Shown: one piece after another, positions 23,546 to 45,295 of the stretch
How positions within the stretch are numbered: the first letter of the stretch is position 1
Layout: every line of letters begins with the position of its first letter
Assembly: GCA_963835575.1 (NCBI GenBank)
Contig: CAWIGG010000004.1
Location: forward strand, 869,672 to 933,671
Direction: 5' to 3'
DNA length: 64,000 nt
From: an uncultured Spirochaetota bacterium
Lineage (GTDB): Bacteria > Spirochaetota > Brevinematia > Brevinematales > JAOACQ01
Translations under genes and position numbers: made by a program
The notes under the pieces: model-generated
Told to the model about the DNA's origin: nothing
Database searches by the model: none
What the model saw: only the letters and a program-made list of their open reading frames with translations

Positions 23546-23624
23546 TTTTACTCCCTCATATGAAATTTGTATTACGTCTTACTTCATATAAGCAAATTTA
23601 ATATATGTGAATTTTCTCCCCTTC

Positions 23625-23653
23625 ATCTTAATAAAGCCCAATTCACCTGTCAA
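23625..23653 (-). promoter_or_regulatory. Shared accessory-gene promoter, copy 1
   Basis: Minus strand TTGACA-ggtgaattgggctttat-TAAGAT-gaa. Confidence 0.7.
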
Positions 23654-23679
23654 GACCGATATCGGGACGCAATAATCTG

Positions 23680-23834
23680 ATCCGTGAAAATCCGCATCAT
23701 CCGCCTAATCCGCGTGCCGAATCGGATCAGTACAATAAGGCGGCAATTATTATAGAATTACAATAGCTTAACAAAGGCATTGAAATGAAATAATTCTCTG
23801 TGCCCCTGTGTCTCGATAGCGAATTCTCTGTGGC
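23680..23834 (-). repeat. Reverse-oriented phased repeat modules at the right boundary of the kinase insert
   Basis: Reverse complement reads ATCCGATTCGG CACGCGGAT TAGGCGGAT GATGCGGAT TTTCACGGAT. Outer module CTCTGTGCCCCTGTGTCTCG..CTCTGTGGC. Confidence 0.75.
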
Positions 23835-23850
23835 GGTTTATCCTGTAATT

Positions 23851-24507
23851 CTATTTATCCTTCCATAGTGTCTCGCCCTTTATGAGCCATGAAACGCCGA
23901 AAGCCCATAGAGTGAATGATTCCAGAATCAAATCGGGTTTGATAATTGAAATTATTGAAGTCTTTAAAAAGAATTCATATATTCCAATCAAGATTATAGA
24001 AATGACTATTATGATACCGCAGGCTCTATATATTCTATTTCTCACTATTTTTTGACCGGTCATTATTTTGGCGTTGCTTTTTGTAAACAGGAAGAAGGAT
24101 ATAAAAGCCAGTATCCCGAAGAATAAGCCGGCGCATATAAAATGAATTACCCCGGAAATATGATCGCTGATCTGAAATGTCCCGACTATTACGGCCTGAT
24201 CACTTCCTGTAAATGTCGGAAACAGAGTCACTCCAAGAGCGCAGGCCCCGCAGATTGTCGCTATAATATCGTCAAAATTACCGTAACCTTTGTAAGAGAT
24301 TAAAAACAGGGCCAATCCGCATGTAATGCCGATAAAAACATCCCTCAAATTCGTATAATAATAACTGCTGATCGATTCCTGGATCGCTTTTCCCGCGATC
24401 AAACCGCCGATGAATAAAATAAACGGCAGGATAATCCCTAAAATACCGAGAATCCGGCGCATTGTTAAATACGATATTGTCAGACAATTGCTCTTTGGAA
24501 CAGGCAT
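23851..24507 (-). CDS. Membrane protein (DUF998-like)
   Basis: About six TM segments; ISYLTMRRILG, SISSYYYT, IHFICAGLFF, FGVSWLIKG. Confidence 0.7.
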   Translation of the reverse strand: MPVPKSNCLTISYLTMRRILGILGIILPFILFIGGLIAGKAIQESISSYYYTNLRDVFIGITCGLALFLISYKGYGNFDDIIATICGACALGVTLFPTFTGSDQAVIVGTFQISDHISGVIHFICAGLFFGILAFISFFLFTKSNAKIMTGQKIVRNRIYRACGIIIVISIILIGIYEFFLKTSIISIIKPDLILESFTLWAFGVSWLIKGETLWKDK

Positions 24508-24644
24508 TGTTTCCTCCTTAAAGTTTTAGGTATTACTTCTGATATAATGCAAATTACAGAAATTTAGAGATTGCCGGGCGATTTTGCCAAAAGTGTACTC
24601 GCCGCAGCCGGCAACTTGATTTTAGACGTTGTAAAGAAAAAGTG

Positions 24645-25109
24645 TTATTCAACAACATTAAATCCCAATTTTGCATATAATTTCATCGCCGGTTCATTCC
24701 CTTCGAGTATTTTTAATGTAACTTCCATACTTCCTTTTGAAAGTATTTCATTAACTGCATATTTTGTTAATTTTGAGCCATAACCTTTTCGCTGAAATTT
24801 CCTATCAATACTGAGAGATTGAATATAATTATTAAGAAATAGTATAGACCCTATTAAATAATTGCCTATATCAAAGAGGAAATAAAATGTATCCTTATTT
24901 TTATTAAAAAATGATTTTATCTCACTTAATTCTGATTCGGATGATTCGTTTATCCTGTGAGGAGTTATATTGTTTTTTCCCCGTAATTCGTAAAATAAGT
25001 CTGATTCCAAATCAAGTTCCATTTTAAAATAATCATCACAATATTTTACCGGATTAATTTCCGGATCTTCATATATGGGTCCTTTATAAACTAATTTTAA
25101 TTCATTCAT
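24645..25109 (-). CDS. GNAT-family N-acetyltransferase
   Basis: FQRKGYGSKL acetyl-CoA motif; NEPAMKLYAKLGF. Confidence 0.85.
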   Translation of the reverse strand: MNELKLVYKGPIYEDPEINPVKYCDDYFKMELDLESDLFYELRGKNNITPHRINESSESELSEIKSFFNKNKDTFYFLFDIGNYLIGSILFLNNYIQSLSIDRKFQRKGYGSKLTKYAVNEILSKGSMEVTLKILEGNEPAMKLYAKLGFNVVE

Positions 25110-25123
25110 TTGTCAGCCGCTTT

Positions 25124-25462
25124 TCAGAGGGCGTCTTCCCCGGTCTGGCCCGTCCTGATGCGGATGGCTTCCTCAATAGTGCTGATAAATATCTTCCCGT
25201 CGCCATGCTGGCCGGAATGGCAGATCGTCCGTATTTTTTCCACGATCTTTTCAACAAGCGCCTCGCCGGTGACTATTTCCAGCTTGGTTTTCGGGACCAG
25301 CGAAACATCGCCCTCGGCGAACTCGATGATGCTCTGGTGCCCGCGCTGGTGGCCGAAGCCTCCTGCCTCGATAACGGTAATTCCCTGGACCCCCAGGTCT
25401 GAAAGGGCCTTCTGGATTTCAGCCAGTTTGGAACGGCGGATAATCACCTCTATTTTCTTCAT
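25124..25462 (-). CDS. P-II family signal protein (GlnB/GlnK-like) with an atypical T-loop
   Basis: MKKIEVII, GFGHQRG, PKTKLEIV, GDGKIFI, IRIRTG; 112 aa from the ATG at 25462, which follows a GGAGG. Confidence 0.88.
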   Translation of the reverse strand: MKKIEVIIRRSKLAEIQKALSDLGVQGITVIEAGGFGHQRGHQSIIEFAEGDVSLVPKTKLEIVTGEALVEKIVEKIRTICHSGQHGDGKIFISTIEEAIRIRTGQTGEDAL

Positions 25463-25695
25463 GAAGGGGCCTCCTGAACTGTCAATTATAAAAAATATAA
25501 CCATATCTTACTGATGATATAAAAAAATTACAATAAAATAAAAAATGCCGTATTTCCCGCGAAGATTTTCAATACAAAATTTCAACGGGATATTATTTCA
25601 CAGTCATATTATTTCAATTTATATTTCTGATCCGGAAAACTTTCAGATAAAACTGAAAATATTTCATTCAGGCCCCCATCCTTAATACGTAATGT

Positions 25696-25724
25696 TTGAT
25701 TTTTCCGCCGTTCCGTGCTAAAAT
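25696..25724 (+). promoter_or_regulatory. Sigma70-type promoter (extended -10) for the ehr operon
   Basis: TTGATT-N17-TAAAAT with TG just upstream of the -10. Confidence 0.55.
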
Positions 25725-25765
25725 TTTGAATTAGTTTTTTAGAGGGGCAGGTCATAGAGTAGAGT

Positions 25766-26440
25766 ATGGATCTGAAATTAAAAGATGTCTGCGGCCTTCT
25801 GGGCGTCGAAGAAAAAAAGCTTGTCGGCTGGATTAAAGAGAATAAAATACCGGCTTATGAAATCCAGCATCAATATTTTTTCAACAAAGCCGAAATTCAC
25901 GAGTGGATCCTTAAAAACAACTGGCCGGTCTCAAAAAGCGCGCTGGACCTGGCTTTGACGAACGAGCCGGTCTCGCTCGTTTCCCTTCTGGACAAAGGCG
26001 GGATTTTTTATCAAATCCCGGGCAGGGATGCCAGGTCGGTTATAAAGAATTCCGTAAAAAACATTCCTCTCCCGCCCGGACAGACCCAGGATACGGTTAT
26101 TTCGACGCTGCTGGAAAGGGAGGAGATGATGCCGACGGCGGTCGGTAAGGGGATTGCCATTCCCCATCCGCGGAACCCGATCGTTTCCGATATTGAAAAC
26201 GAGAGCGTGTCCCTCTGCTTTTTAAAAAATAAAATAGATTTCGGGGCGCTGGACGGACTGCCTATAACGGCGCTCTTTATTGTCCTCAGCGCGAATGCCA
26301 GAAGGCACCTGGAGATTTTATCTAAAATATCCTATCTCTGCCAGAATAATGATTTCAGCGGACTGATGGAAAAACAGGCGTCCAGGGATGCGCTTCTGGC
26401 TTATATTGAAGGAAAAGAAAAGGATTGGATAAAAAGGTAA
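25766..26440 (+). CDS. Excisionase-type HTH fused to a PTS EIIA (Ntr/Fru-type) domain
   Basis: N-terminal LKDVCGLLGV..WIKENKIPA..YFFNKAEI; LLEREE.PTAVGKGIAIPHPR (phospho-His), DFGALDG, HLEILS. Confidence 0.85.
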   Translation: MDLKLKDVCGLLGVEEKKLVGWIKENKIPAYEIQHQYFFNKAEIHEWILKNNWPVSKSALDLALTNEPVSLVSLLDKGGIFYQIPGRDARSVIKNSVKNIPLPPGQTQDTVISTLLEREEMMPTAVGKGIAIPHPRNPIVSDIENESVSLCFLKNKIDFGALDGLPITALFIVLSANARRHLEILSKISYLCQNNDFSGLMEKQASRDALLAYIEGKEKDWIKR

Positions 26441-28432
26441 ATGGGCATGCTGTTTTTTTATATATCCCTTATCATCTTATTGATCGGCGGGCTATTCTGT
26501 CTCATCGTTCCGGAAAAGGTAAAGAGCGTCGTTAATTTTATTTTTTACGCTGTCAGCTTTCCTTTAATTCTTGTTCCTTCCATTGAAGTCCTGACAAAGA
26601 ATACAGTTTTGAGCGCCTCATTTTCATTGAATTCCCTTTTCGGCCCCGTGAATATCGTCATCGATCCGCTTTCGGCTTTTTTTGTTGTCATCATCTCGCT
26701 TGTCGGATTGCTGGCCTGCCTTTATTCCATAGGTTATATGAAGCCTTATATCAAAGAGCGGAAAAGATTGTCCTCGCATTACTTTTTTCAGAATGTCCTT
26801 ATCATTTCCATGCTCCTTGTCGTGACCCTGCAGAACGCTTTTGCGTTTCTCATCGCGTGGGAATTGATGTCGCTCTCATCATTTTTCCTGGTGATCTTTG
26901 AGAGCGAGAAAGAGGAAGTGATCAAAGCGGGAATGAATTATCTCATCAGTATGCATATCGGCCTGATTTTCATCATTTCAGGCTTTATATTTCTGTCAAT
27001 CCAGTCGGGAAGTTTCGGTTTTGATTCATTTAAAAAAGTTTTTGAATCTAATAAAACAACCGCGGATATTCTATTCATCCTGTTCTTCGCCGGATTCGGG
27101 ATAAAGGCTGGTTTTTTCCCTCTGCATACATGGCTGCCCAGGGCGCATCCGGCCGCGCCAAGCCCCATCTCGGCCATCATGTCCGGGGTGATGATTAAAA
27201 CAGGGATTTACGGAATCCTTCGGGTCTTGAGCTGGACCGGCACGCCGTCGTTTTTTATTTCCTATTTTGTTCTGATAATCGCCCTTCTTTCCGGGATTAT
27301 AGGGGTCATATACGCGATAGCCCAGCACGACCTGAAAAAACTGCTGGCCTATCACAGCGTGGAAAATATCGGCATCATCGGCCTGGGCATCGGTGTAGGG
27401 ATGCTGGGGCTGTCTTATCAGAATAGTCTTGTGTCCGTACTGGGTTTTTCCGGCGCGGTGCTCCATGTGCTGAACCATGCCCTGTTCAAAGGGCTTCTCT
27501 TTTTCGGGGCCGGCGCGGTTTATAAAGAAACCGGAACAAGAAATATTGAGAAATTGGGCGGTCTGGTCAAAGCCATGCCGTTTACGGCGGCTTTCTTCCT
27601 CATAGGCTCCATCGCTATTTCCGGTCTTCCGCCTTTGAACGGATTCATCAGCGAGTTCCTGATCTATTTCGGCCTGTTCAAGGGGTTCAATCCTGCGAAT
27701 TTGATCTATACGGTCATACTCATTTTGACTATTGCCGGATTATCGCTTATCGGCGTTATGGCCATGCTCTGTTTTACTAAAGCCTTCAGCGTGGTCTTCC
27801 TGGGGAGCCCCCGTTCGGAACCGGCGCGGAAAGCGCTTGAAGCGCCTGTCAGCATGATCATTCCGATGTTTATTATGGGGCTGTTGATCGCCTTTATCGG
27901 CTTATTTCCGCAGGCCGTGTTTTCTTTTATCAGGCCTGTTGTTATGATTTTATCCCCGGCGGCGGATATTGCACTGGATACGGCGGTATTGAATGTCCTC
28001 GGTTCGATCTCGAAAGCGCTGTTCATTTTTATCGGAATGTTCGCTGTTGTTTTTTTGCTGCGTTTCCTTCTATTAAGGAAGAGAAAGGTCAGTATTCAAA
28101 AAACCTGGGACTGCGGCTATCAGGCGGGTACACCGCGGATACAGTATACGGCTTCTTCTTTTGCGGAGCCTTTCCTGCTGCTGGCAAAAAAGCTGATTGA
28201 TTACAAAACTATCATCAAGCCGCCCGCGGGTTTATTCCCGAAAGAAGCATCACTGGAAAGAGATTCCGCTGACATGATCGAAACAAAGGCGATTATGCCG
28301 ACTGTCAGCCTGCTTAATAAATTTTTAAATCTTTTCTCCTGGATACAGAGCGGCAGGACGCAGAATTATTTAATATACGGGATAGTCTTTCTGCTTCTGG
28401 CACTCCTGTTTGTCATAGGGGTCCGGCTATGA
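26441..28432 (+). CDS. Antiporter-like membrane subunit (HyfB/NuoL-like) of the Ehr complex
   Basis: AWELMS, KAGFFPLHTWLPRAHPAAPS, DLKKLLAYHSVENIG, LPPLNGFISEF, TWDCGY. Confidence 0.9.
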   Translation: MGMLFFYISLIILLIGGLFCLIVPEKVKSVVNFIFYAVSFPLILVPSIEVLTKNTVLSASFSLNSLFGPVNIVIDPLSAFFVVIISLVGLLACLYSIGYMKPYIKERKRLSSHYFFQNVLIISMLLVVTLQNAFAFLIAWELMSLSSFFLVIFESEKEEVIKAGMNYLISMHIGLIFIISGFIFLSIQSGSFGFDSFKKVFESNKTTADILFILFFAGFGIKAGFFPLHTWLPRAHPAAPSPISAIMSGVMIKTGIYGILRVLSWTGTPSFFISYFVLIIALLSGIIGVIYAIAQHDLKKLLAYHSVENIGIIGLGIGVGMLGLSYQNSLVSVLGFSGAVLHVLNHALFKGLLFFGAGAVYKETGTRNIEKLGGLVKAMPFTAAFFLIGSIAISGLPPLNGFISEFLIYFGLFKGFNPANLIYTVILILTIAGLSLIGVMAMLCFTKAFSVVFLGSPRSEPARKALEAPVSMIIPMFIMGLLIAFIGLFPQAVFSFIRPVVMILSPAADIALDTAVLNVLGSISKALFIFIGMFAVVFLLRFLLLRKRKVSIQKTWDCGYQAGTPRIQYTASSFAEPFLLLAKKLIDYKTIIKPPAGLFPKEASLERDSADMIETKAIMPTVSLLNKFLNLFSWIQSGRTQNYLIYGIVFLLLALLFVIGVRL

Positions 28433-29987: not shown

Positions 29988-29994
29988 GAAAAAT

Positions 29995-31398: not shown

Positions 31399-31413
31399 GA
31401 AGGAGTCGATAAA

Positions 31414-32910: not shown

Positions 32911-33180
32911 ACAGGAAGGCATCCCTTGGCTGTGCTCGGGACAGGCTCCGGCGGGAAGGGAAGAATATAAACGTATCTTCTATTATAATATTTAAACTAA
33001 TGTAAAAGAAGCCTGATTGTAATATCCGATTTTTCACACGGATGACGCGGATTTTAAAGGATTTAGTTTTACGCTGAGCAGCTTTTTTATTGATGATATC
33101 TGATAGAGTCTTATATTAACCACGAAGTTCGCGAAGAACACGAAGAGGGTTGGAAAGGTGGGCTGCGCCCGGTGGATAAG
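32911..33180 (+). repeat. Forward-oriented modules B, C, D-like and F at the left boundary of the defence block
   Basis: ACAGGAAGGC[REP insert]GCGGGAAG; GTAATATCCGAT..CACACGGAT GACGCGGAT TTTAAAGGAT; AACCACGAAG TTCGCGAAG AACACGAAG; TGGGCTGCGCCCGGTGGATAA. B, C and D are in the same order as at 13853-14036. Confidence 0.72.
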
Positions 33181-33224: not shown

Positions 33225-34934
33225 TTATATCTTAAAATATTTTTTCTCTGCTTTTTTAGCTATTTTTAAAATAGAATCCAACTTTTCACTTACTTCCTTG
33301 TCAATTTCCTCGGGTTTTGCCATACTAACCAATTTGTAATAACGGCTTTTATCCATTAAAATCACAGAATTAATCTTTTTATAAAAATCCCTGAATACTT
33401 TATCGAGAAAATCATCACTCATTTTTGTCGTATTCCACCATTCGTTCATTTTATCTTTTTTTGCCACACCAGGAATATAATCATCGATTATATTTTTAAT
33501 TATTGACGGATAAGTCTGAGTAAATAATTCTTTTCCATATTCTTCAACAATAAAACGCTCAATAACAACCGGCAATGGCAAATAATTTTCTATTTCGTTT
33601 TTATCCCACATTAACATTTTGAAATATTCATTACTCTGAAGTTTAGCCGGAATTTTATCAAATATGGCGATGCCTGATAAATCAGGCATTGCTTCTTTTA
33701 ACCCGTAAAAATGATTTTCGGCTGATGACGGCCGGTTTGAATCAACAGTTCTGACGAATGCTTCTTCAAGGTACTTTAAAACGGGATGTCCTAATAATTT
33801 GGCAAAGGCTTGAAGTATCAAATGATCGGTCGTCCCTTCGAGATAAAGGACCCATTTCTTTTGTTCTGCAAGAACGTACTGATCAAAACCAATACTATTC
33901 AGTGATTTTACGAGCTGCTGAGTCTTATTCACACGGTGGGGATCACCGATAAACCCTATTATTGTATCCTTTTCCGCAGCCTCGTTAAGCACTGCTTCCG
34001 AGTGTGTGGCAATTATTAATTGTGATTTCTGATTCTTAATGGTTTCTGAAAGTGTGTTATAAATCTCTTTTTGCCTGATAACTTCAAGATGGGCATCCGG
34101 TTCATCAAGTAAAAGAATTGTGTTTTCATTGCTGTAAATATAAGAAAATAACAGCAGGATTTGCTGAAAACCCCTTCCGGAGTTGGAAAGAGCCATATTT
34201 TTCTTGGAATCTTCGCGATAAGTCAACAACAGCTTTCCCGTACCGGCATCATAAACCGGATCATCTAAATCAACAAGGAAAAACCTTTTTATGAGACTTT
34301 TTAATTCCTTCCATTTTCCATTACTGCGCTGATAGACATTCCAGCATAGGTTTCTCAGGACTTCCGCGGTCCTTCCCTCGCCGATCCTGCCCTGAATCGA
34401 TCCGGGTTCAAGTTTGTCTTCCTCGCTCGCAAGTCCCGACATTGGAGGAAGAAAACCAACGCGTTCGTTTATAACTTCTTCCGGAAAAGGCAGAGGTTTC
34501 CCATTTTCATCACCCAGTATCCGGCAATAAATAGATTCGGGATTTGCATAATCAAATTCAAAACCCAGAGACCATTTAGTGTTTGAAGTAAAGCCTTCGG
34601 CTGTAATTTTTATCCTGATATTCTCCGTACCTCTTTTACCTTCTTTTTTTATAAAACTTTTTCTGACATTGAGATCGCTCCATAATTGAAGCGCGGAGGG
34701 TAAAGGCATAGAAAGGAGTTCTTTACGGTTTATTGTTATACCTGTTCTCTGCTTCGCTTTGGTTGTACGGGAATGTTCATACCACCTTCTCATCCCGATA
34801 CTCCAGAGAGAAATAGCCTGCAATGCTGTGGTTTTACCGGAATTATTCGGTCCTATAAAAGCGACAACAGGAGTCAGGTCAATTTCAACTTTTTCCAGTT
34901 TTTTAAAATTTTCAATAAAAAGTCTGGTTAACAT
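33225..34934 (-). CDS. ABC/AAA_15-type ATPase with a C-terminal TOPRIM-like region (OLD/GajA-like, putative defence protein)
   Basis: IENFK, GPNNSGKT, SGRGFQQ signature, LLLDEPDAHL, IATHS, then LYLEGTTD...IFD...EIENYL. Confidence 0.75.
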   Translation of the reverse strand: MLTRLFIENFKKLEKVEIDLTPVVAFIGPNNSGKTTALQAISLWSIGMRRWYEHSRTTKAKQRTGITINRKELLSMPLPSALQLWSDLNVRKSFIKKEGKRGTENIRIKITAEGFTSNTKWSLGFEFDYANPESIYCRILGDENGKPLPFPEEVINERVGFLPPMSGLASEEDKLEPGSIQGRIGEGRTAEVLRNLCWNVYQRSNGKWKELKSLIKRFFLVDLDDPVYDAGTGKLLLTYREDSKKNMALSNSGRGFQQILLLFSYIYSNENTILLLDEPDAHLEVIRQKEIYNTLSETIKNQKSQLIIATHSEAVLNEAAEKDTIIGFIGDPHRVNKTQQLVKSLNSIGFDQYVLAEQKKWVLYLEGTTDHLILQAFAKLLGHPVLKYLEEAFVRTVDSNRPSSAENHFYGLKEAMPDLSGIAIFDKIPAKLQSNEYFKMLMWDKNEIENYLPLPVVIERFIVEEYGKELFTQTYPSIIKNIIDDYIPGVAKKDKMNEWWNTTKMSDDFLDKVFRDFYKKINSVILMDKSRYYKLVSMAKPEEIDKEVSEKLDSILKIAKKAEKKYFKI

Positions 34935-35010
34935 AAATTGCCCCTTGGATTTTTTGATTAAGATTTATTTTAACATAAATCTTATTATTTGTCTTTTCAA
35001 ATTCTAATGT

Positions 35011-38000
35011 TTATTCCATTATCTCATCTATTTTCCCCATCACCCGTTCAGTCTCCACAAGAGCGGCAATTATCCGCTGGTAGTGTAAGATTTCGTCAAA
35101 TGTTAAAGTGCGCCCTTTCCTGTCCTTCAGCCACTTCTGCGCGGGCTGGTAGCCGCCGATGTAGAACTCCCAGCTGATTCGGGAACTCCTCCGAAGAATT
35201 GCTTTTTATTGATCCATACTTTGCCATAATTTTTAACCTTAGATTTTACCTGTTCTTTCTCAAAAATCACTTTTTCCACTTCATTATTCCCCGTTTCGGG
35301 ATAAGCGGTAATTAAATTTTCAAGCAGCGGAGATTCCATCAGATGTAATTTCCTCAATACGGCCCCTTTTTCCGCAAGTTTAAAAAATATTTTAGCGCTT
35401 TCAGGATACGGTATTCGCGGAAAGTCTATTTTTAAGAATTCCTTATATTTTTCCCGGTAGGAAGGCGAATGGAGTACGGCATAAATATAGTCGAGAATGT
35501 CCAGCGGGGTAAAGTATTTCTTCGCTCCTTTAGTTTTTTGAATAGAATCATTGTCATCTTCTTCCTTGAATTCCAGCCCAATTTTCCCGGCGATAGCATT
35601 CACGATTTCCATGTTTAGGTTAGGACGGCGATGTTCCGAAAAGCGACGATTCGAATCGTCGCTTTTCGCTTCGAAATCAAATTCCCCATCGTCGTCGTAG
35701 AGGTAGAGAGGAAATATTTTACAATTATCAAATGGCGAAACGCCATCCTTATCAACAATTTTATTTGAAATGAAATAATTAGTAACATTACCTCTTCTTG
35801 AATTTCTAATTGCTAATAGACATATATTTTCTTTTAACATATTATTCATTAATGGGCTTCGTGGATAGGCCATAAAACCCTTACTTTTTCCAGTAAAATA
35901 AGTATACCTATCATCAAAAGGATGGTATAGTACATTATTTTCGACCCCATTATTATTCTTTATATCATCCATAGCCCATTTAATAGACCAATCTCTTCCA
36001 TCTTCACCCAAATTATACTTATATCTTATCTCCTCTGTTGACAATTGTTTTAAATCAATAATAATTTTTAATAATTCTTCCTTAGAAAAAGAATAAACTA
36101 GATTATCCCTTTTAGTTTGTATTCCAGTATTATTTGAAATAAATATTGATTCAATATTAAGTCCTTTATTATATTCTTCATCCAATCTAAAATCTTTTGG
36201 TACAAAAAAACAATACGGTTCAACAGGGTCAAGCTTCAACCATTTCAAAGATAAAATATTACTATTCCAGAGTTTATCATACTTAACCTCCCGTTCACCA
36301 AATACATCAAAATGAAAAACAGAAGATAATTCTTTTTTCTTTCCACCATTCTTTACAAAAATATTGATTGATACCCCTTGCTGGATATCGAAAACATTTT
36401 CATCCTTGCTTCCATCCGGTGAAGTTTCTTTTTTCTTTGAATTTCCATGGAGATCATAAATATAAATTTTATCGAAAGTTTCCATCAGGTGCTTGCGCAT
36501 CTGCCGGTGTGTAATGCCGTCGATATAGGAATTGTTTGTGATCATTGCCACAATACCCTGGCCGTTTTTCTCGATAAAATGCTCGGCATAGCGGATAAAT
36601 TTTATATAATCGTCGTCAAGATTCAGTTTCTTCTCATTCAATCCTTCCTTATAGCACTTTATCTGGGAACGTATCCAATCGCCGGTATTGCTGGAACTGA
36701 CGCTGTACGGAGGATTGCCGACCACGACCATGACGGGCATATCCTCCTTGACCTTATTCGCTTCCTTCGCCTCAAAGGAAAGCCACTGCGCGAAAGTGGT
36801 GTTGATTGTGGCTCCCGGCTTTTCCAGGCTGTTGGTCAGGTAAATTCCCAGGCGGGGGGATCGGTCGGTAAAAGTGTAGCCGGTTTCCTGGAAAATGAAT
36901 TCCATCTTGAGGTGGCACATCGCGTAGCTTGCCATCAGGATTTCGAAGCCATGCAGGCGGGGAAGAAGATGCTCGTCCACATAGCCGTTCCAGACGCCTT
37001 TCTGGGATTCGAAGCTTTTATAAATCCGCCTGATAATTTCAGCGAGGAAAGTCCCTGTGCCGGCAGCCGGGTCTAAAATCTGCACCCGGTGGGATTCAAT
37101 CTTAAATAATCCCCCCGCGATGTTTTCATGTTCCACCTCGACTTTTGAAGTATCAGCCAAGCCCATCTTAAGGCCGAATTCGGATTTCAGAATATCGTCC
37201 ACGGCGCGTACAATAAAACTCACAACAGGTTCGGGGGTATAATAAACCCCGCGCGATTTCCGCTGGGCGGGATCGTACTCGGCAAGGAATGTCTCATAAA
37301 AATGGATTACCGGGTCATGACGGGCGGTCGCGTCTCCAAAGTCTGCCATAATCTTATTCAAGTCACACGCGAGGAATAGATCGGCCAGCGCGTCTACAAT
37401 CCAGTCGATGCTGTTGTCCAGTTCGGGTCCGGCCACATAAGAGAAAAAATTCCTGAGAAATAGATTGGATTTCGGAACGAGGAATAAGGCTTCCTGACGG
37501 GAAAAAGTTTCCATTGTTTTATCATGAATCCTCGCGGCGAATAGGCCGTATGCTACCGTCTGAGAGTAAATATCGGCAAATTGATGTTCGGTCATATCAT
37601 GAATCAGTACTCTCTTAAATGACTGGTACTGGCTGTAAAGGGTATTGGACGAATCACCGGAGTGATCCGGTTTTTGAAGCGTTAACGCATTATAAATAAT
37701 ATCACGCATCAATCGCGCCTTGTCTGCCATCATCCGGGCGAGCTTTTCCGCGGATGTAATAGTCTGGCCCCTGTAATCACAGAAATCTCGGATCATATCC
37801 TCAAAAACAGGCCAGTCTTTTTCACAGGGTTTAAGTTTGCCGCCTTCGATTTCAGCGATTCGAGCCGTCATTTCTTTTTGCCCTGCGCGGAAAAGCCGGA
37901 ATTCCAGGTAATCTGTCAGGATAAGATTGTCAAGGCTTTCAAGGTATTTTTTAAGCTGATCGTCTTTCTCACTTTTATCAAGCGAAATACCAATATCTTT

Positions 38001-38207
38001 TGTTTCAACATAACCGACTGGTATTTCTTTCCGGGTGATAATCAAATCTGGCGCGCCGCATTCCTGGCGTCTGGGTTCATTTGTTACTTTTATTTCAGGT
38101 ATAATGCTTTCAATCAGCCCTTCAAGATCGGAACAATAACTGTGCTCGGTAGCAATTCCATCATTAAAAAGCCTTTTTATATTTGAAAAATAATCAGCTA
38201 TCGTCAT
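35011..38207 (-). CDS. Single-chain restriction-modification enzyme (type IIG/ISP-like without helicase; N6-adenine MTase), 1-nt frameshift near 35171
   Basis: N-terminal PDLII..VETKD nuclease motif, GVYYTPEPVV, DPAAGTGTF, GNPPY, IYAVLHSPSYR. The conserved tail WEFYIGGYQPAQKWLKDRKGR continues in another frame to a stop at 35011. Confidence 0.85.
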
Positions 38208-38407
38208 AATATACCTCAAATAATTATAATTACAAATTAATATATTATAACAAATTAAAGATTTAAATCAAAACTTTCATTTGTATTTTTATTTCTTTAT
38301 AACCATTGCACTCCGTTTTCTTCTCTGAAAGTCCGGGAAAGCCTTTTGATTTTTCCTGATGCTCACTTTGCTGAAGCCAACGGAGCGGCCAGCCAGTTCT
38401 CCGTTCT

Positions 38408-38571: not shown

Positions 38572-38628
38572 TCGGCACATAAAGGAATTTTGTTTATTAT
38601 TTTTTTCTCATCATCGTTCCCCGGCGGG

Positions 38629-38948: not shown

Positions 38949-39010
38949 TTTGCCTATCGCTGGGGGACAATCTGCAGTGTGGCACAGCGCCAGCAGTGCC
39001 TCCTTTTCCC

Positions 39011-39118
39011 TTCTTTTCGAAAAGAAAGAAATATCGTAATTCCCCCGGCAGCCTGTCGGAATAATAATCCCCAATAGCTTAATAAAAAGAAAAGACGTTG
39101 ACCCTTCAGCCAGAAGGC
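39011..39118. repeat. Spacer module Y, copy 1
   Basis: TTCTTTTCGAAAAGAAAGAAATATCGTAATTCCCCCGGCAG...AAAAAGAAAAGACGTTGA recurs at 40138-40243, with a degenerate copy at 44542-44619. Confidence 0.8.
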
Positions 39119-39208
39119 GATGCCCTTTTGACCTTGCAAAAGAAAGTGAACAAAATCCCCCGGCAATCGTTGCCGGTCTGCGCAGCCGCATTGCACCTTT
39201 TTATTATC

Positions 39209-39424: not shown

Positions 39425-39623
39425 GGACCTTTTCCCTTCCGATGAAAACCTGGTCTACTTCAGGGAATTCCTTATCCTCATTTTCAAAATAAAGTTCAAC
39501 AGCCTCTTTAAGATTAGTAACAGCCTCGTCTGAATTATTTCCAAAAGAGGAAACATCCACATTCAAACACTGTGAAACATAATATTGGCCTTCATGCCAG
39601 ACAACATATTCGATTTCTTTCAT
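39417..39623 (-). CDS. hicB: Short HicB-family antitoxin without a DNA-binding domain
   Basis: YVSQCLNVDVSSFGNNSDEAVTNLKEAVELYFE; overlaps the hicA start. Confidence 0.85.
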   Translation of the reverse strand: MKEIEYVVWHEGQYYVSQCLNVDVSSFGNNSDEAVTNLKEAVELYFENEDKEFPEVDQVFIGREKVHV

Positions 39624-39817
39624 AATAGAGCCTCTCTTTAAAAAAAGAATAAAGGTAATTAAGCGTAAAATCAAGTTTTAAAGTATTCGTTTATTTTTGT
39701 ATAACAGACAGGAATGTCTGTTATACCGGATTAACCGGCGCCAATTCCCATCTTTAAAAAGAATGTTTTATCATAAATAAAATGAATAAGAATTAAAAAA
39801 AGCTGTTCGGCAAATTG

Positions 39818-39957
39818 TCCGTTCCCGAGGCCATTTTCCTCTTGGCCATAATCTGAACATCAAATATCTCGATATAAAGTTGTGGCATCCGCTATTATAA
39901 TAGAAGAGAGGAAGCACATGCTTGCGGCAGGGACGCCGCAACCGCCGCATAAAGCCA
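39818..39957. repeat. Spacer module X, copy 2
   Basis: Direct repeat of 38408-38571. Confidence 0.8.
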
Positions 39958-40127
39958 CGCCCAGCACCACTTTGATTGCCTGTCCTCAAAGTGGTGCTGG
40001 GCAAGGATAGCGATTTAAGGCGGCTATTATAGCAATGAACTGCTTATTAAAAAGCCGGATAACACACCTCCATACGGTCCGATAGCTTCGTATGAAAATG
40101 GCCTCGACCTGTTTTCTTTCTTTAGCG

Positions 40128-40243
40128 CGATATTTCTTTCTTTTCGAAAAGAAAGAAATATCGTAATTCCCCCGGCAGTCTGTCGGACTAATAATCTCCA
40201 ATAGTTTAGTAAAAAGAAAAGACGTTGATCCTTAACCAGAGGC
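40128..40243. repeat. Spacer module Y, copy 2, beginning with a 36-bp perfect palindrome
   Basis: CGATATTTCTTTCTTTTC|GAAAAGAAAGAAATATCG (40128-40163), then a direct repeat of module Y. Confidence 0.85.
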
Positions 40244-40283
40244 TATACATCTATTGGCCTAGTAAAAGTTAGTAAAAATGGCA

Positions 40284-41402
40284 TTACGCTAGTAAAAGCT
40301 TGATAGGCAGCGCCCCGTTCAACAACGCGATTTCTTTGTTTGCTTTAAGCGAAAGCAAATGGACCGGCGCATCCGCCGGAACGAGCAGCGCGATGCGCCA
40401 CGCCGAGAACCGCTCATGGATGACCCTGCCTATGTCTTTGAACAATGCGCTGATTCCGCTGCCCCCGATGCGTTCGCCGTAGGGCAGATTGGCGATCAGG
40501 AGACCGCCCGGCGCGGGAGGCGTCCACTCCTGGAAAGGCTTTACTGAAAATGCGATATACTTTTCAACACGGGCGCGCAGCGCGGAGGCGCGAGCCACGT
40601 CGACATACTTGGCGTTGATGTCCGAAGCATAGATCGGCGCCGGCAGTTCGGACTTTTTAGCCGCGCGCAATTGATCGGAAACGCGGCGCCACAAAGGGCG
40701 GTCGAAACCGGCCAGGTGCTCCAGGGCAAAATCGTCTTTGCCCCGGTGAATGAGCGGCGCTTTATTCAGAGCGATATATGCCGCTTCGATGATAATGGTG
40801 CCGGAGCCGCACATCGGATCAAGGAGCGGTTCATTGCCGGTGTAGCCTGCCAGAAGCAGGATCGAAGCGGCCAGTGTCTCTTTCAAAACGGCCGGATGCC
40901 CGCCTGTACGCCAGCCGCGTTTATGAAGGGCGCGGCCCGCCGTGTCGATGCCGAGCGTGCAGGAACCGTTCCGGACGAATACAACGATGGTAATGGGCTC
41001 GTCGGCGTCGGGATCGAACCGGGGAGCGGACTTTTCAAACGCGCTATTTTGTATCGATTGAACGATGGATGTAATAACCGCTTCCTCGCCCAACGCAATA
41101 GCTTGTTGATCGGTGAGGGCCGGCGCGACCGTGAAAGGCTTATGCGAGCGCAGCCATTCCGGCCAGACGATCTTCTGCAGTTCCATCCTCAGATGTGTTA
41201 TGTCAGGAGTGGCGAATTCCGCGACCACGCGCTGAATTCTGCTTGCTGTACGCAGTAACAAATGGGCGCGGTACGCGGTCTCCAGATCAGTGTCGAACGC
41301 TACGCCGCGGTGCAGTATATTCAGGTCTTTTATTCCAAGCCCGGCAAGTTCGGAAGCGAGCACATCGACAGTCTCGTGCGGGCATGTGGCAATCCATCTC
41401 AT
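40284..41402 (-). CDS. THUMP-domain class I SAM RNA methyltransferase (RlmL-like), copy 1
   Basis: LRTASRI, DTAGRALHKRGWR, LKETLAA, LLDPMCGSGTIIIEAA, NLPYGERI. Confidence 0.88.
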   Translation of the reverse strand: MRWIATCPHETVDVLASELAGLGIKDLNILHRGVAFDTDLETAYRAHLLLRTASRIQRVVAEFATPDITHLRMELQKIVWPEWLRSHKPFTVAPALTDQQAIALGEEAVITSIVQSIQNSAFEKSAPRFDPDADEPITIVVFVRNGSCTLGIDTAGRALHKRGWRTGGHPAVLKETLAASILLLAGYTGNEPLLDPMCGSGTIIIEAAYIALNKAPLIHRGKDDFALEHLAGFDRPLWRRVSDQLRAAKKSELPAPIYASDINAKYVDVARASALRARVEKYIAFSVKPFQEWTPPAPGGLLIANLPYGERIGGSGISALFKDIGRVIHERFSAWRIALLVPADAPVHLLSLKANKEIALLNGALPIKLLLA

Positions 41403-41535
41403 AAAGTTTGAGACCTCAACCGATTAGATTTTGACAGGTCCGGCGATAGAGCGAAATTATGTTTAACGTCCTCGATAAGCGAAGCTGCCGAAGTTTTTAC
41501 TAAAGCCGAGGTAAGTGAACAACTTTGTGACTCTA

Positions 41536-41811
41536 TTACACTATCTCAATTTTTACTTTTTTTCCTAATGCCTTTGCGATACGTTCCAGGGATGATAATT
41601 TTAAATCTTCGGCATGGTTTTCCATTCTTGATATGGCGCTTTTTGTCGTGTGAATCCTGCCAGCTAAATCTTCCTGGGTTAATCCGTTTTTGATCCTCAT
41701 TTCTTTCAACATCAATCCGATTTTAAAATCATTGTAATTTTCATCATAGTTTTCAGCGAAAGAAGGATCGGATTTTTTCCTTTTATCGACGTATTTTTTT
41801 AAATCACTCAT
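41536..41811 (-). CDS. XRE-family HTH antitoxin (HigA-like)
   Basis: RIKNGLTQEDLAGRIHTTKSAISRMEN; overlaps the toxin stop. Confidence 0.85.
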   Translation of the reverse strand: MSDLKKYVDKRKKSDPSFAENYDENYNDFKIGLMLKEMRIKNGLTQEDLAGRIHTTKSAISRMENHAEDLKLSSLERIAKALGKKVKIEIV

Positions 41812-42158
41812 ATATTCCTCCGTAAATAATCGGCTTTGTATTTTTCAGCCAGTTTGATTTCATTTTCAGGTGTTTTTTGGGTCTTTTTGGTAAAACCATT
41901 AGTTAATATAAACAGTGCGTTTTTATGAAAGAATCCTAATAATCTGTAAGTATCACTTCCCTGTTGAATCCTGACTTCGTAGATATTGTCAGTATTCACT
42001 AATTTTTTAAAATAGTTTTGCGGAATTTGATCAAAGTCTTCAATAATCTGCAATACCCATGTAATTTTCCGGGCTGTTTTTCCCGGTAAAGAATCAAGAT
42101 ATTCTTCAACCGGACATTTTCCATCCTCGGTTTTATAAAAGTTAATGACTCTTTTCAT
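41808..42158 (-). CDS. RelE/ParE (HigB, Gp49-like) toxin
   Basis: FYKTEDGKCPVEEYL, IYEVRI, YRLLGF, LTNGFTKKTQKTPENEI. Confidence 0.85.
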   Translation of the reverse strand: MKRVINFYKTEDGKCPVEEYLDSLPGKTARKITWVLQIIEDFDQIPQNYFKKLVNTDNIYEVRIQQGSDTYRLLGFFHKNALFILTNGFTKKTQKTPENEIKLAEKYKADYLRRNI

Positions 42159-42162
42159 ATTA

Positions 42163-42192
42163 TATGTTAGCATACATGTGAACATTAGTCAA
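42163..42192 (-). promoter_or_regulatory. Toxin-antitoxin promoter with overlapping palindromic operator
   Basis: Minus strand TTGACT-N17-TAACAT, 5 nt before the ATG; imperfect palindrome ATGTT-ca-CATGTATG-ct-AACAT. Confidence 0.6.
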
Positions 42193-42283
42193 TAGCATTT
42201 ATAGCAATCTTGTATCAGGTTATCGTTTAACTAGCGACATTAATGAGTTATTGTTTTATGGGTTTTAAGATTGACCAAAAGAT

Positions 42284-42440
42284 AATCCTGTAAATCCTGT
42301 GTTATCCTATAAATCCTGCCGAATTGGGGTCAGTATAATTAAGATATTCTAATTTTCAATTTCCGGCAGGATATGAAGAAATCATCTGATCTGTGCGAAT
42401 CCGCATAATCTGTGTCATCCGCGTGCAGAATCGGATATTA
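42284..42440 (-). repeat. Reverse-oriented modules A' and C'
   Basis: The reverse complement of 42313-42331 is GACCCCAATTCGGCAGGAT, identical to 13798-13816. The reverse complement of 42388-42440 is TAATATCCGATTCTG CACGCGGAT GACACAGAT TATGCGGAT TCGCACAGAT. Confidence 0.8.
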
Positions 42441-42467
42441 TATAAAAGAGGTGTTAATAATAATCTA

Positions 42468-43586
42468 TTATGAAACCAGCAGCTTTACCGGTAATGCCCC
42501 GTTCAACAACGCGATTTCTTTGTTTGCTTTAAGCGAAAGCAAATGGACCGGCGCATCCGCCGGAACGAGCAGCGCGATGCGCCACGCCGAGAACCGCTCA
42601 TGGATGACCCTGCCTATGTCTTTGAACAATGCGCTGATTCCGCCGCCCCCGATGCGTTCGCCGTAGGGCAGATTGGCGATCAAGAGACCGCCCGGCGCGG
42701 GAGGCGACCACTCCTGGAAAGGCTTTACTGAAAATGAAATATACTTTTCAACACGGGCGCGCAGTGCGGAGGCGCGAGCCACGTCGACATATTTGGCGTT
42801 GATGTCCGAGGCATAGATCGGCGCCGGCAGGGCGGACCTTTTAGCCGCGCGTAATTGATCGGAAACGCGGCGCCACAAAGGGCGGTCGAAACCGGCCAGG
42901 TGTTCCAGGGCAAAATCGTCTTTGCCGCGGTGAATGAGCGGCGCTTTATTGAGCGCGATATACGCCGCTTCGATGATAATGGTGCCGGAGCCGCACATCG
43001 GATCAAGGAGCGGTTCATTGCCGGTGTAGCCTGCCAGAAGCAGGATCGAAGCGGCCAGTGTCTCTTTCAAAACGGCCGGATGCCCGCCTGTACGCCAGCC
43101 GCGTTTATGAAGGGCGCGGCCCGCCGTGTCGATGCCGAGCGTGCAGGAACCGTTCCGGACGAATACAACGATGGTAATGGGCTCGTCGGCGTCGGGATCG
43201 AACCGGGGAGCAGACTTTTCAAACGCGCTACTCAATATCGATTGAACGACGGATGTAATGACCGCTTCCTCGCCCAACGCAAGAGCCAGTTGATCGGTGA
43301 GGGCCGGCGCGACGGTGAAAGGCTTGTGCGGCCTCAGCCACTCCGGCCAGACGATCTTCTGCAGTTCCATCCTCAGATGTGTTATGTCAGGAGTGGCGAA
43401 TTCCGCGACTACACGCTGAATTCTGCTTGCTGTACGCAGTAACAAATGGGCGCGGTACGCGGTTTCCAGATCAGTGTCGAACGCTACGCCGCGGTGCAGT
43501 ATATTCAGGTCTTTTATTCCAAGCCCGGCAAGTTCGGAAGCGAGCACATCGACAGTTTCGTGCGGGCATGTGGCAATCCATTTCAT
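42468..43586 (-). CDS. THUMP-domain class I SAM RNA methyltransferase (RlmL-like), copy 2
   Basis: Same motifs as copy 1; about 15 of 372 residues differ by manual comparison. Confidence 0.88.
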   Translation of the reverse strand: MKWIATCPHETVDVLASELAGLGIKDLNILHRGVAFDTDLETAYRAHLLLRTASRIQRVVAEFATPDITHLRMELQKIVWPEWLRPHKPFTVAPALTDQLALALGEEAVITSVVQSILSSAFEKSAPRFDPDADEPITIVVFVRNGSCTLGIDTAGRALHKRGWRTGGHPAVLKETLAASILLLAGYTGNEPLLDPMCGSGTIIIEAAYIALNKAPLIHRGKDDFALEHLAGFDRPLWRRVSDQLRAAKRSALPAPIYASDINAKYVDVARASALRARVEKYISFSVKPFQEWSPPAPGGLLIANLPYGERIGGGGISALFKDIGRVIHERFSAWRIALLVPADAPVHLLSLKANKEIALLNGALPVKLLVS

Positions 43587-43682
43587 AAAGTCCGGTACCT
43601 CAACCAATAAAATTTTGAGGTCCGGCCTAACGAAGCAGGTCGGACCCGAAGAAAAGAGCCGCCGTTAGCGGCAGTACTGTCT

Positions 43683-44318
43683 CTATTTTAAAGAATTATA
43701 TATGTCATCCAGTTCTTTAAAATTATACTTGTCAATGAATAATGATTTGTATTCGTTATAGTATTTATTCGCTTCTGCTATATTTCCAATTTTCTTTAAT
43801 AAAAAAGAATATGCAAGTTTATGTTGAATGTAATTATGAAAACCAAATCGAATGAATTTTCTATTGATTTTTTCTAAAAATAAAATATCTAAATCTTTTA
43901 AATGATGTATTCTTGAATAAAATGATTCACTTTCATTTATTATAATAGAAATAATATCTTTTGTTCTTTTAATTAAATCTTTTTCACTTTTATATTCAAA
44001 TAATGAAATTGTGCACTCTTTCGGTTCTTTATAATCTAATTGATCAATGTAAAAATCGTTTATATCTGCAGACTTTATTGTTTTATGCCATTTAAGCTTA
44101 CCGTTGAAACTGGGGCAAAAATTTAATGAAACTCCCCAAAGAAAAGCTTTTGACATACTTTTTAGAGAGTATGCCGTAATACCTTTCATAAATTCATTAT
44201 TATCTTCTTTAATCCACTTATAATCTTTGGTATGAATATATCCAAGTTTTAATAAATCTTGTGTTATGGTGTTATTTATAATTTCATTAAAAACATCTGT
44301 TTTATCATGATAACCCAT
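43683..44318 (-). CDS. Hypothetical AT-rich protein (possibly DUF4304-like)
   Basis: 211-aa ORF with a GGGGAG RBS and its own promoter; the family call rests only on LLKLGY..WIKE-type similarity. Confidence 0.6.
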   Translation of the reverse strand: MGYHDKTDVFNEIINNTITQDLLKLGYIHTKDYKWIKEDNNEFMKGITAYSLKSMSKAFLWGVSLNFCPSFNGKLKWHKTIKSADINDFYIDQLDYKEPKECTISLFEYKSEKDLIKRTKDIISIIINESESFYSRIHHLKDLDILFLEKINRKFIRFGFHNYIQHKLAYSFLLKKIGNIAEANKYYNEYKSLFIDKYNFKELDDIYNSLK

Positions 44319-44396
44319 AAATTTCTCCCCGGAATTGCAAGCCGGCTTATTATAAACGAATTTTATTTTATAATATTTTTGGAATTCATTCCATTC

Positions 44397-44425
44397 ATCT
44401 TAATAAAGCAATATTTTACTGTCAA
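44397..44425 (-). promoter_or_regulatory. Shared accessory-gene promoter, copy 2
   Basis: Minus strand TTGACA-gtaaaatattgctttat-TAAGAT-gaatggaat. Confidence 0.7.
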
Positions 44426-44615
44426 CACAAGGATTTCTTCTTTCTTTTAATTAAAAAGAATAAAATAATTATTTGTATTCGTTTAAAGTCTTCAAAATGA
44501 CCGTATGCCTATTCAGAGTCCAAATTTATTTTATGTGTTGTGTGCCGTTTTTCCCTATCTTTTCTAAAAAGAAAGAAAGGGCTCTTCCCCGGATAATCTG
44601 CCGGGCAAAAAATCC

Positions 44616-45080
44616 TCAAAAATTATATGCCAGATGGAATTCCAAACCATCTTTTTGCGGTATTAAAAAAAGTCTCATGTTTTGTTTTTTTTGATTATTA
44701 TTATACTCTAAAACCGCCGCTCCGCCCCATATCATGCTTGCTATGCTGAAACCTAATGAACCGAAAACGCCGATATAGCCGAATGGCGATATTTTCGGGT
44801 CAGGGGATGTGGAAGATAAATCCCTGATAATTTCAATCCAGGTGCAGACAGTGCAGATAGAGCCTCCGGTATTTAATATCCAGAAACCGGCATAATCTTC
44901 GGCGTATATATTTCCCCATCCGAATGTTCCCGGAATCAGAATACCTAGAGTGCTGACATAACCCAGAACAACTCCTTCTATCACGCTTTTTTGTCTGACT
45001 GGCGCCTGATCATTGGTCCCGCAAAAAACTAAAGAACTGTAAAAAACTAAAACAGTAAGTATTACAATGCTTCTTTTCAT
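44616..45080 (-). CDS. Hypothetical exported or membrane protein
   Basis: Signal-like N-terminus, Gly-rich hydrophobic segments, C-terminal LEFHLAYNF. Confidence 0.65.
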   Translation of the reverse strand: MKRSIVILTVLVFYSSLVFCGTNDQAPVRQKSVIEGVVLGYVSTLGILIPGTFGWGNIYAEDYAGFWILNTGGSICTVCTWIEIIRDLSSTSPDPKISPFGYIGVFGSLGFSIASMIWGGAAVLEYNNNQKKQNMRLFLIPQKDGLEFHLAYNF

Positions 45081-45172
45081 ATAATCCCCTGTGCAATCAT
45101 TTATAATATTCTCTAATATTCGTCTTTTTTAAAATAATTGAATGATTATTTTTAATAAAATTTATTCCATTC

Positions 45173-45201
45173 ATCTTAATAAAATCATATTTTACTGTCA
45201 A
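45173..45201 (-). promoter_or_regulatory. Shared accessory-gene promoter, copy 3
   Basis: Minus strand TTGACA-gtaaaatatgattttat-TAAGAT-gaatggaat. Confidence 0.7.
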
Positions 45202-45295
45202 GACAGGTTTTTTTTACATTTTGGACGGGCACAAGAAAGTGGACATAATCCCCGGCAATTGTTGCCTCCGGACAAAAGAAAGTGAACAAGTATCC

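Follow-up and report, generated by a model that had tools for sequence, protein, structure and literature searches.

Three promoter sites in a 64,000-nucleotide stretch of the genome of an uncultured Spirochaetota bacterium (hereafter the window; positions 869672-933671 of contig C4 of genome G000) belong to a family of 11 related modules, one of which occupies the promoter and docking-site region of an integron in the same genome. An integron has a single promoter (Pc) and a single docking site (attI), with good expression of the first cassettes only. The membership of the window sites in the family, the extent and conservation profile of that family, its junction with the integron and the accessory status of the genes behind the modules (the cargo) are established. 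Our preferred reading, which we hold to be probable though not assured, is that the window sites are orphan members of a promoter-plus-attI family that has multiplied and is recognisable only in this genome (4.39 Mb in 7 contigs, 42% GC with a mean of 0.418).

The initial annotation of the window had described one promoter module in front of three unrelated accessory genes. Consistent with this, we found TTGACAG-N11-TTTATTAAGATGAA on the minus strand at 23622-23653, 44394-44425 and 45170-45201, with 0 mismatches over all 21 specified bases; the coordinates that had been given (23625-23653, 44397-44425 and 45173-45201) run exactly from the start of the -35 element to the end of the -10 element. 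Against these three exact matches, the mean count in 100 dinucleotide-preserving shuffles was 0.00, and none of the shuffles reached 3. A promoter scan read all three copies as TTGACA / 17 / TAAGAT (10 of 12 matches), the joint top score of each scanned region. They lie 72-86 nt 5' of their genes in the same orientation (Table 1). The genes on their 5' side encode a 218-amino-acid membrane protein (copy 1), the 154-amino-acid protein (copy 2) and BipA (copy 3), and none of the three copies has an integrase next to it. Copies 2 and 3, which lie 776 bp apart, had been called nearly identical over about 40 bp; they are indeed similar, although slightly less so than that, with 29 of 32 positions identical over the motif and 84-86% identity over 57 nt. 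Copy 1 is a significant member in its own right (cmsearch, 59.2 bits, E 9.6e-16), matching the family consensus at 47 of 73 non-hexamer positions against a background maximum of 37.

Table 1. Modules, repeats and cargo genes in the window.
Feature	Position in window	Strand	Details
Module copy 1	23564..23673	-	-35 TTGACA 23648-23653, -10 TAAGAT 23625-23630
Module copy 1, predicted transcript start	~23618	-	
Module copy 2	44336..44445	-	-35 44420-44425, -10 44397-44402, predicted start ~44390; 67.7 bits
Module copy 3	45112..45221	-	-35 45196-45201, -10 45173-45178, predicted start ~45166; 48.7 bits
Word-array repeat fused 5' of copy 1	23674..23826	-	CTGATCCG..CGGAT x3-4..CGGATCAG
Inverted CGGAT word-array copy	21844..21947	+	C4:891515-891618 (+); 72 bp past the kinase stop
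Copy 1 cargo, 508-amino-acid Ser/Thr protein kinase	22019..23545	-	Pkinase 2.4e-47; GC 0.318; C-terminal half unassigned
Copy 2 cargo, 211-amino-acid protein, no assigned family	43683..44318	-	GC 0.231
Copy 3 cargo, 154-amino-acid protein, no assigned family	44616..45080	-	GC 0.398
Segment with P-II, GNAT, 218-amino-acid gene, copy 1 and kinase	21814..25765	.	~3.95 kb
Terminator-like GC hairpin and T-run	43659..43674	-	directly 3' of the 211-amino-acid gene

Across the genome, an nhmmer profile built from 10 copies, with the integron copy (C2:46694) left out, found 11 sites at E <= 1.8e-7, and the next match had E 1.1. Thus the three sites of the window are not the only copies, and none of the 11 stands before a housekeeping gene. 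A mismatch scan recovered five exact copies of the motif, one with one mismatch and two with two, all of which also have the spacer and the flanks in common. Contig C4 holds 8 of the 11 copies, three of them (C4:592554, 596767 and 599123) within 7 kb. Each copy is about 110 bp long, given here as -20 to +90 counted from the first T of TTGACA, and consists, in this order, of an A-rich tract, the hexamers TTGACA and TAAGAT (or TAAAAT) with 17 bp between them, and about 55 nt of leader. Identity between copies is 70-87% over 47-275 bp, and the common stretch runs from about -15 to about +80-90. C4:599123 and copy 3 are 86.9% identical over 61 nt, and C2:1055517 and C4:629888 are 82.7% identical over 98 nt; copy 1 reaches only 74-77% with other copies. 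Identity of 80% or more across 50 nt or longer, the mark by which putative mobile promoters were recognised (PMC3575422), is found in this family.

To judge how far the family stands apart from ordinary promoters, we compared all 264 TTGACA-N17-TAnnnT sites of the genome with the family consensus at the 73 non-hexamer positions. The eight members that fit this pattern share 47-62 of these positions, against 10-37 for the remaining 256 sites, which sets the family apart as a discrete group and not the tail of a promoter consensus. Together with the shuffles, this discreteness led us to reject chance or a generic promoter consensus as the source of the similarity, and it bears out the proposal that the modules have a common descent reaching beyond the hexamers, as do mean pairwise identities of 63% in the spacer and 56% in the leader. 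Conservation is highest in the -35 block (0.88), the -10 element (0.87) and a GCTTTAT block before the -10 (0.79), and lower in the spacer (0.63), the leader (0.56) and the upstream part (0.41). TTGACA is perfect in 10 of the 11 copies; C4:629888, whose gene has a conserved promoter of its own, is the only one in which both hexamers are damaged (TTGGCA / TAAGTT). A drifted backbone with fixed hexamers is the pattern that would be expected from purifying selection on promoter function.

A similar pattern might arise if the modules were the common operator and promoter of a regulon, held alike by selection for a transcription factor, for example of the XRE type. Conservation is also seen outside the hexamers, in a GCTTTAT that precedes the -10, a GAA that follows it and an AAATTTC within the leader; two of the copies drive regulators of the XRE family, and the erp loci of Borrelia are described as co-regulated through a conserved promoter/operator (PMC10016077). 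However, the similarity is continuous over about 100 bp, including spacer and leader positions without obvious symmetry, and the family is discrete. Two copies are stranded by insertion sequences (IS256 and IS21) with no gene to regulate, and the site before one of the XRE-family genes is empty in all four congeners. Common descent is itself compatible with regulation, and we consider a regulon improbable as the explanation for the family.

Even less probable, in our judgement, is that the module promoter serves to transcribe a structured cis-regulatory RNA or a small RNA. Conservation extends over approximately 55 nt past the -10; a TTTCGT..ACGAAA hairpin can form in some copies, and in one of the copies its loop holds a 25-nt insertion. 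But RNAalifold found 0 consensus pairs on the 11 leaders, the pairing of the arms is broken in several copies in an alignment read by eye, and Rfam 15 at gathering score gave no match at the module sites of the window or at 6-8 other module-bearing loci. A leader peptide starting from the ATG in TAAGATG was also considered and dropped: this ATG lies inside the -10, no ribosome-binding site precedes it and the stops fall at varying positions.

The link to the integron comes from the copy at C2:46694. It overlaps the stop codon of a same-strand gene for a 353-amino-acid tyrosine recombinase (C2:46684-47745), beginning in the last integrase codons and ending exactly at the junction with the first cassette. 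The recombinase matches PF00589 (4e-37); among proteins of solved structure VchIntIA, the Vibrio integron integrase, is its best relative (2a3v, E 3.6e-43), with XerA behind. The first cassette, of 585 bp, starts within the final bases of the module (..TATATAGAG|TTGGGC) and closes with a palindromic site of 176 bp; the whole cassette recurs at C2:2028328-2028912 with 99.3% identity, beginning at the same G|TT. The junction, module|TTGGGC, is complementary to the R'' box (GCCCAAC) of the first attC. An attC profile gave 66 matches at E < 1 in the genome, 39 of them near full length, and 37 of these 39, each 138-220 bp long, resolve into R'' RYYYAAC, L''/L' and R' GTTRRRY; L'' and L' agree at 8-9 of 9 positions in 30 of the 37. 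The arrays are co-oriented and lie at both ends of C2, at ends of C3, C5 and C6, and on C7. Seven consecutive pairs were compared by eye, the two attI junctions of the genome's integrons among them; in all seven, R' and the R'' that follows are reverse complements, and such complementarity between successive sites is the signature of integron cassettes. Because this module copy lies between the integrase gene and the first cassette with a matching junction, one member of the family is the Pc/attI region of the integron. The annotation had set the modules apart from the single Pc of integrons; that contrast was wrong, since the family includes the integron's own Pc/attI.

The cassette arrays span C2:1277-46031 (-), C2:2028910-2045367 (+), C3:545-4347, C5:296-1585, and C6:411894-425622 (-), and are also found on C7. 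A second integron lies on C6; its integrase is 47% identical to the first, and its attI, ..ATATAAAGAG|TTGTAC, pairs with GTACAAC. The second integrase-like gene (C6:427147-428208), co-oriented like the first, is repeated on C7 and C1. At C2:2028200-2028360 a third attI-like junction (..ATACGCA..TTTATATAGAG|TTGGGC) opens a cassette array that has no integrase upstream; a 434-amino-acid gene lies there on the opposite strand. In five places (C6:168841-170640, C2:2043959, C5:177, C3:387 and C6:412096) an IS1182-like end, ..CTTTTTCGACAG, lies directly against an attC, each time just before ACTCAAC, which suggests that insertion of this element is targeted to attC sites.

The ten other copies have no adjacent integrase, and the attI-type end extends into them to differing degrees. 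A core of the form TATAT(R)GAG|TTRRRY is kept at C6:171666 (TTAGGC), C4:629888 (TTGGGC) and C4:596767 (TTAGCT), and a shortened core at C4:599123 (TTGAAT). The ..TATATRGAG|TTRRRY end and the TTTCGTAT and ACGAAAT motifs belong to the family consensus and not to the integron copy alone. Broken or partial attC sites follow the cargo of two of the orphans: behind C6:171666 come a hydrolase gene and an attC split by an IS1182-like element, and behind C4:592554 a methyltransferase gene and an incomplete attC match (E 1.7e-4). When the 8 kb downstream of every copy were scanned with strict structural criteria, two attC sites appeared behind the integron copy and none behind any of the ten orphans, with a background of three matches on both strands of the 1.07-Mb contig C4. 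In the window, the core of copy 1 is degenerate (..TATGAAG|TAAGAC), that of copy 2 is lost, the sequence there being ATAAG|CCGGCT, and that of copy 3 is absent; copy 3 starts 95 bp past the BipA stop codon, and its leader is conserved only to about +45. The idea of one promoter per cassette did not hold for the window, where the cargo carries no attC and the attI-type core has degenerated.

In our preferred reading, the promoter-plus-attI end of an integron would have multiplied, in part together with a dispersed repeat, so that the family would descend from the attI region rather than the reverse. The copies in the window would have kept the promoter half only, their recombination core having decayed, and, since only that half is kept, we infer that they act simply as strong promoters. 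They are probably constitutive and, judged from sequence, would give foreign genes of low GC content a transcription start of their own.

Several observations weigh against this reading. Descent may have run in either direction: dispersed copies may have come from attI, or a dispersed promoter may have been captured at attI. Neither integrase-like protein reaches the cut-off of the 'integron integrase' model TIGR02249; the 353-amino-acid recombinase scores 213.7 bits in two stretches against a cut-off of 265. It also has 27 residues where VchIntIA has 69, most of the IntI-specific segment being absent, and the second integrase has 15 residues for about 56 positions of TIGR02249. Tested on the attI regions of relatives, the module profile gave less than 9 bits throughout, none of it significant, so that the resemblance to those regions is one of architecture and short motifs only. 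In a relative that carries a similar arrangement (G006, below), the junction hexamers of the orphan sites do not match the R'' of the nearest attC. No attC was found in the window, either by the profile at E < 1 or by the structural scan of 8 kb downstream of the three copies. Lacking both a G|TT core and attC, these three copies are tied to the integron only through their homology to other copies. Lastly, promoter activity and transcript starts are predictions from the consensus for all modules.

A second dispersed element must be weighed here. Six of the 11 modules, copy 1 included, are joined through a common linker to a repeat that consists of an array of short words (ATCCG..CGGAT x3-4). 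The word array has several alternative 3' extensions, of which the promoter module is one, and on its own it has 73 further matches at E < 1e-3 on both strands. Its inverted CTGATCCG and CGGATCAG ends enclose the array only and not the promoter, and at the module boundaries we found no terminal inverted repeats; nor could a target duplication be read at the one locus where filled and empty sites were compared. An inverted array lies past the kinase stop, so that the unit of module and kinase is bracketed by inverted arrays. Further word arrays in the window are at 13891-14000 (+), 32932-33088 (+) and 42375-42464 (-), with about 70 other sites in the genome. At C4:356983-357746 a twelfth, degenerate copy of the module without a -35 lies between inverted CGGAT arrays; the terminal GGAG of this module forms the ribosome-binding site of a 176-amino-acid gene of no family.

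One possible explanation is that the module is a mobile promoter that spread with the CGGAT array and has no special tie to the integron; the copy beside the integrase would be an insertion like any other, cassettes having later recombined into a chance GTT of its leader. The linker common to six of the 11 copies implies that array and module were duplicated as a unit, the array alone has 73 further matches, and the family shows the identity over length by which mobile promoters were defined (PMC3575422). Integron integrases are described as able to use relaxed secondary sites (bioRxiv 10.1101/2022.09.11.507474), and the profile is not significant on the attI regions of relatives. By contrast, the attI-type end together with TTTCGTAT and ACGAAAT is part of the family consensus and resembles how attI ends in the second integron and in relatives; the integron copy at C2:46694 has no array upstream; and G006 pairs a dispersed promoter with an attI sequence of its own. 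We therefore regard a mobile promoter without an integron origin as possible but unlikely.

We compared these features with 40 related genomes, including four congeners (G001, G002 and G004 among those named). A search of 185,579 species, each represented by one genome, gave 0 matches to the exact motif, as did viral contigs. A single match in a metagenome contig follows an unrelated gene, has a dissimilar spacer and flanks and scores 7.3 bits, and we read it as chance. Among the 40 relatives the module profile gave five weak matches (17.8-20.9 bits) in four genomes, with one in the congener G004; from translations read unaided they precede ordinary genes, and we treated them as generic promoters. 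Orthologues of the integrase (41-53% identity) are present in 7 of the 40 relatives. None of the four congeners has the integrase, and none has the module family, a co-occurrence that favours the integron origin. The attI regions of the second integrase and of the orthologues in G005-G008 end in a similar ..TATA..GAG|TTRNNC box preceded by ATACG-type repeats, and in G007 and G011 a TTGACA promoter follows right after the integrase stop.

G006, which belongs to a different genus, has three dispersed sites with a module of its own, TTGACA-N18-TATAAT. The one on C16 ends exactly in the attI sequence of G006 (..ATACGCAATGCGTATATATCGAG|TT), the one on C5 does so with two differences, and the one on C9 retains only the last ~15 bases of the attI end. 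Two of the three have an attC within about 1.5 kb downstream. At a fourth site, a different promoter with the same end precedes the orthologue of the hydrolase found behind C6:171666 in G000. A broken integrase gene (one TGA, one TAA) adjoins an attC array in G006. In a limited search of the literature on orphan or multiple attI sites, made up of partial texts, we found no precedent for dispersed promoter-attI modules.

A stronger version of the integron origin is a distributed integron, in which promoter-plus-attI landing pads would lie scattered round the chromosome and short integrases without the canonical IntI insert would act on them in trans. Every gene captured in this way would receive a strong promoter of its own instead of queuing behind a single Pc. 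The kinase, 211-amino-acid and 154-amino-acid units would be old landing pads whose cores and attC have decayed while the promoter stayed under selection, and G006 would show the same design with its own attI sequence. We hold this view only tentatively and think it doubtful.

Returning to the module family, the cargo behind its members is accessory and unrelated, as the annotation had stated. An all-against-all blastp of 15 downstream proteins found a single pair, two XRE proteins with 27% identity over 63 amino acids of their helix-turn-helix (HTH) domain, and of six cargo proteins searched for in the 40 relatives, four were absent apart from one weak partial match. Cargo GC ranges from 0.23 to 0.52 (genome mean, 0.418). 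Only the kinase domain of the copy 1 cargo matches PADLOC models (mad6, 1.1e-68; PD-T4-6, 7.7e-60), and its C-terminal 209 amino acids have just one weak partial match among the relatives (E 1.2e-4). The 211-amino-acid protein was found in 0 of 40 relatives, as was the 154-amino-acid protein, which has a predicted lipoprotein-like N terminus and hydrophobic segments. Two leads given with very high confidence by Atlas, DUF4304 for the former and a Borrelia P13-like protein for the latter, were not confirmed by Pfam even at E <= 5. Copy 2, the 211-amino-acid gene and the hairpin behind it are a self-contained unit. The segment that holds copy 1 and the kinase (21814..25765) is absent in the congeners G001 and G004, in which the conserved flanking genes are adjacent (G001, C10 60815-61189 beside 61214-61881; G004, C3 207039-207579 beside 207682-208406). 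Synteny downstream of BipA is not conserved; acetate kinase follows in G002 and a methyltransferase in G004.

Outside the window, the modules precede a 560-amino-acid protein of no family (present in 0 of 40 relatives; its C-terminal part weakly matches PIN_3, E 0.033), an S-adenosylmethionine-methyltransferase operon (C4:592554), an alpha/beta hydrolase (C6:171666), a 58-amino-acid open reading frame followed by a double-HTH XRE protein, an XRE-cupin regulator followed by methyltransferases (C4:629888), and three small open reading frames followed by a PDC-S11-like protein. Because an IS256-family transposase gene follows directly after the 560-amino-acid gene, that gene may be truncated; the last 22-38 residues of this open reading frame (C4:599202-600884) come from a short repeat that recurs at 33 further genomic sites. 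Oppositely oriented insertion sequences (IS256 and IS21) cut off two more module copies immediately downstream, and from the gene layout several copies are predicted to drive operons. The hydrolase is patchy in its distribution, with an 88%-identical orthologue only in G006 and every other match at 35% or less.

Filled and empty sites can be compared at the XRE-cupin gene, which is conserved at 75-77% identity in all four congeners. In each of these it has its own TTGACA-N17-TATACT promoter and no module upstream. In G000 the native promoter is present and the module lies immediately 5' of it. A module can thus be added before a gene that already has a promoter, and it does not simply arrive as part of every incoming gene. 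Synteny upstream is broken between the filled and the empty sites, so that a target duplication could not be read there. The proposal of a portable promoter supplied to captured genes is partly supported; the idea of one promoter per cassette is weakened further by the several copies that are predicted to drive operons or are cut off by insertion sequences.

Other sources for the module were considered and rejected. An outward promoter at the end of an insertion sequence does not fit, as ordinary genes adjoin the modules upstream, and the insertion sequences are either downstream of them or oppositely oriented. A phage moron was set aside given that no phage genes surround the copies, the PHROGs library not having been searched. 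The native promoter of GxxExxY nuclease genes was dismissed too: PF05635 has one match in the genome (C6:2181), near no module.

The arrangement shares features with several known systems. In Treponema-type integrons, intI is described as pointing the same way as the cassettes, and Treponema was then the only spirochaete clade known to have integrons (Wu, Doak and Ye 2013, PMC3607928). As in the Pc/attI of these integrons, the copy at C2:46694 lies between the recombinase gene and the first cassette, is co-oriented with them and has its promoter facing the cassettes; the G|TT junction complementary to R'' and the attC arrays with the canonical R''/L''/L'/R' layout are likewise shared. An integron carries a single attI, but here there are 11 homologous modules of a promoter-attI-like kind, of which ten lack a neighbouring integrase and most lack attC cargo. 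Unlike canonical IntI, the recombinases of this genome do without most of the IntI-specific segment. Clusters of attC sites without attI or Pc (CALIN; Cury et al. 2016, PMC4889954) also place integron-derived parts away from the integrase, and cassettes away from the integrase are described as needing a nearby promoter for expression (PMC4889954; Loot et al., bioRxiv 10.1101/2022.09.11.507474). CALIN differ in that here it is the promoter-attI end that has multiplied, mostly without attC.

Putative mobile promoters (Matus-Garcia, Nijveen and van Passel 2012; commentary, PMC3575422) are similar upstream regions before non-homologous genes in one genome, as the modules are. The published families are mostly pairs and their mechanism was left open (PMC3575422), whereas the present family has 11 members and a traceable link to a recombination site and a dispersed repeat. 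In Borrelia, another spirochaete, the 'upstream homology box' of the erp loci, said to derive from a single promoter and leader sequence, likewise places one conserved promoter/operator region before many differing proteins (PMC10016077). As described there, the erp loci sit at allelic positions of cp32 prophages, with a lipoprotein leader peptide that is conserved among them; the modules, in contrast, are chromosomal, precede unrelated coding sequences and are linked to an integron.

Small dispersed repeats that carry promoters include Correia elements, ERIC and REPIN. The modules resemble these in that a short dispersed repeat supplies outward-facing promoters, six of them being joined to the word array, and may differ in that no terminal inverted repeats or readable target duplication were found bounding the module.

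Elsewhere the window contains further repeats and accessory genes. A tandem duplication with a period of 2184 bp (40284-43607; 58% GC) carries an RlmL-like methyltransferase gene; the duplicated proteins are 96% identical, with a Gp49/HigB-like and HTH_3 pair between them. Another dispersed repeat of about 230 bp, present in more than 20 genome copies at 76-93% identity and with a 36-bp palindrome, occurs at 40000-40230 and 39006-39106. At 33225-38219 an AAA_15/AAA_21 ATPase, AriA/GajA-like in PADLOC, stands beside a 1030-amino-acid Type ISP/IIG restriction-modification enzyme (PADLOC 9.4e-296); by its predicted domains this pair is defence-like. Two giant signalling proteins of 1641 and 1728 amino acids (47398-57558) have kinase, AAA_16, TPR and GAF domains, and one ends in a GGDEF and the other in a SpoIIE phosphatase domain. 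The only Rfam match in the window is a NiCo riboswitch at 596-674 (+), with 38.8 bits against a gathering score of 37.

If the promoter-attI end has truly multiplied, this genome would use a different way of wiring acquired genes into expression, repeated 11-fold here and with an independent parallel in another genus, and such ends would supply a mechanism for the unexplained putative mobile promoters. The orphan copies, with cores that are intact in some and decayed in others, form a natural allelic series, and the short recombinases beside canonical attC arrays bear on how integron integrases evolved from Xer-like enzymes. Even if the orphans are mere relics, they would still be a well-documented case of promoter reuse before strain-specific genes, among them a defence-like kinase.

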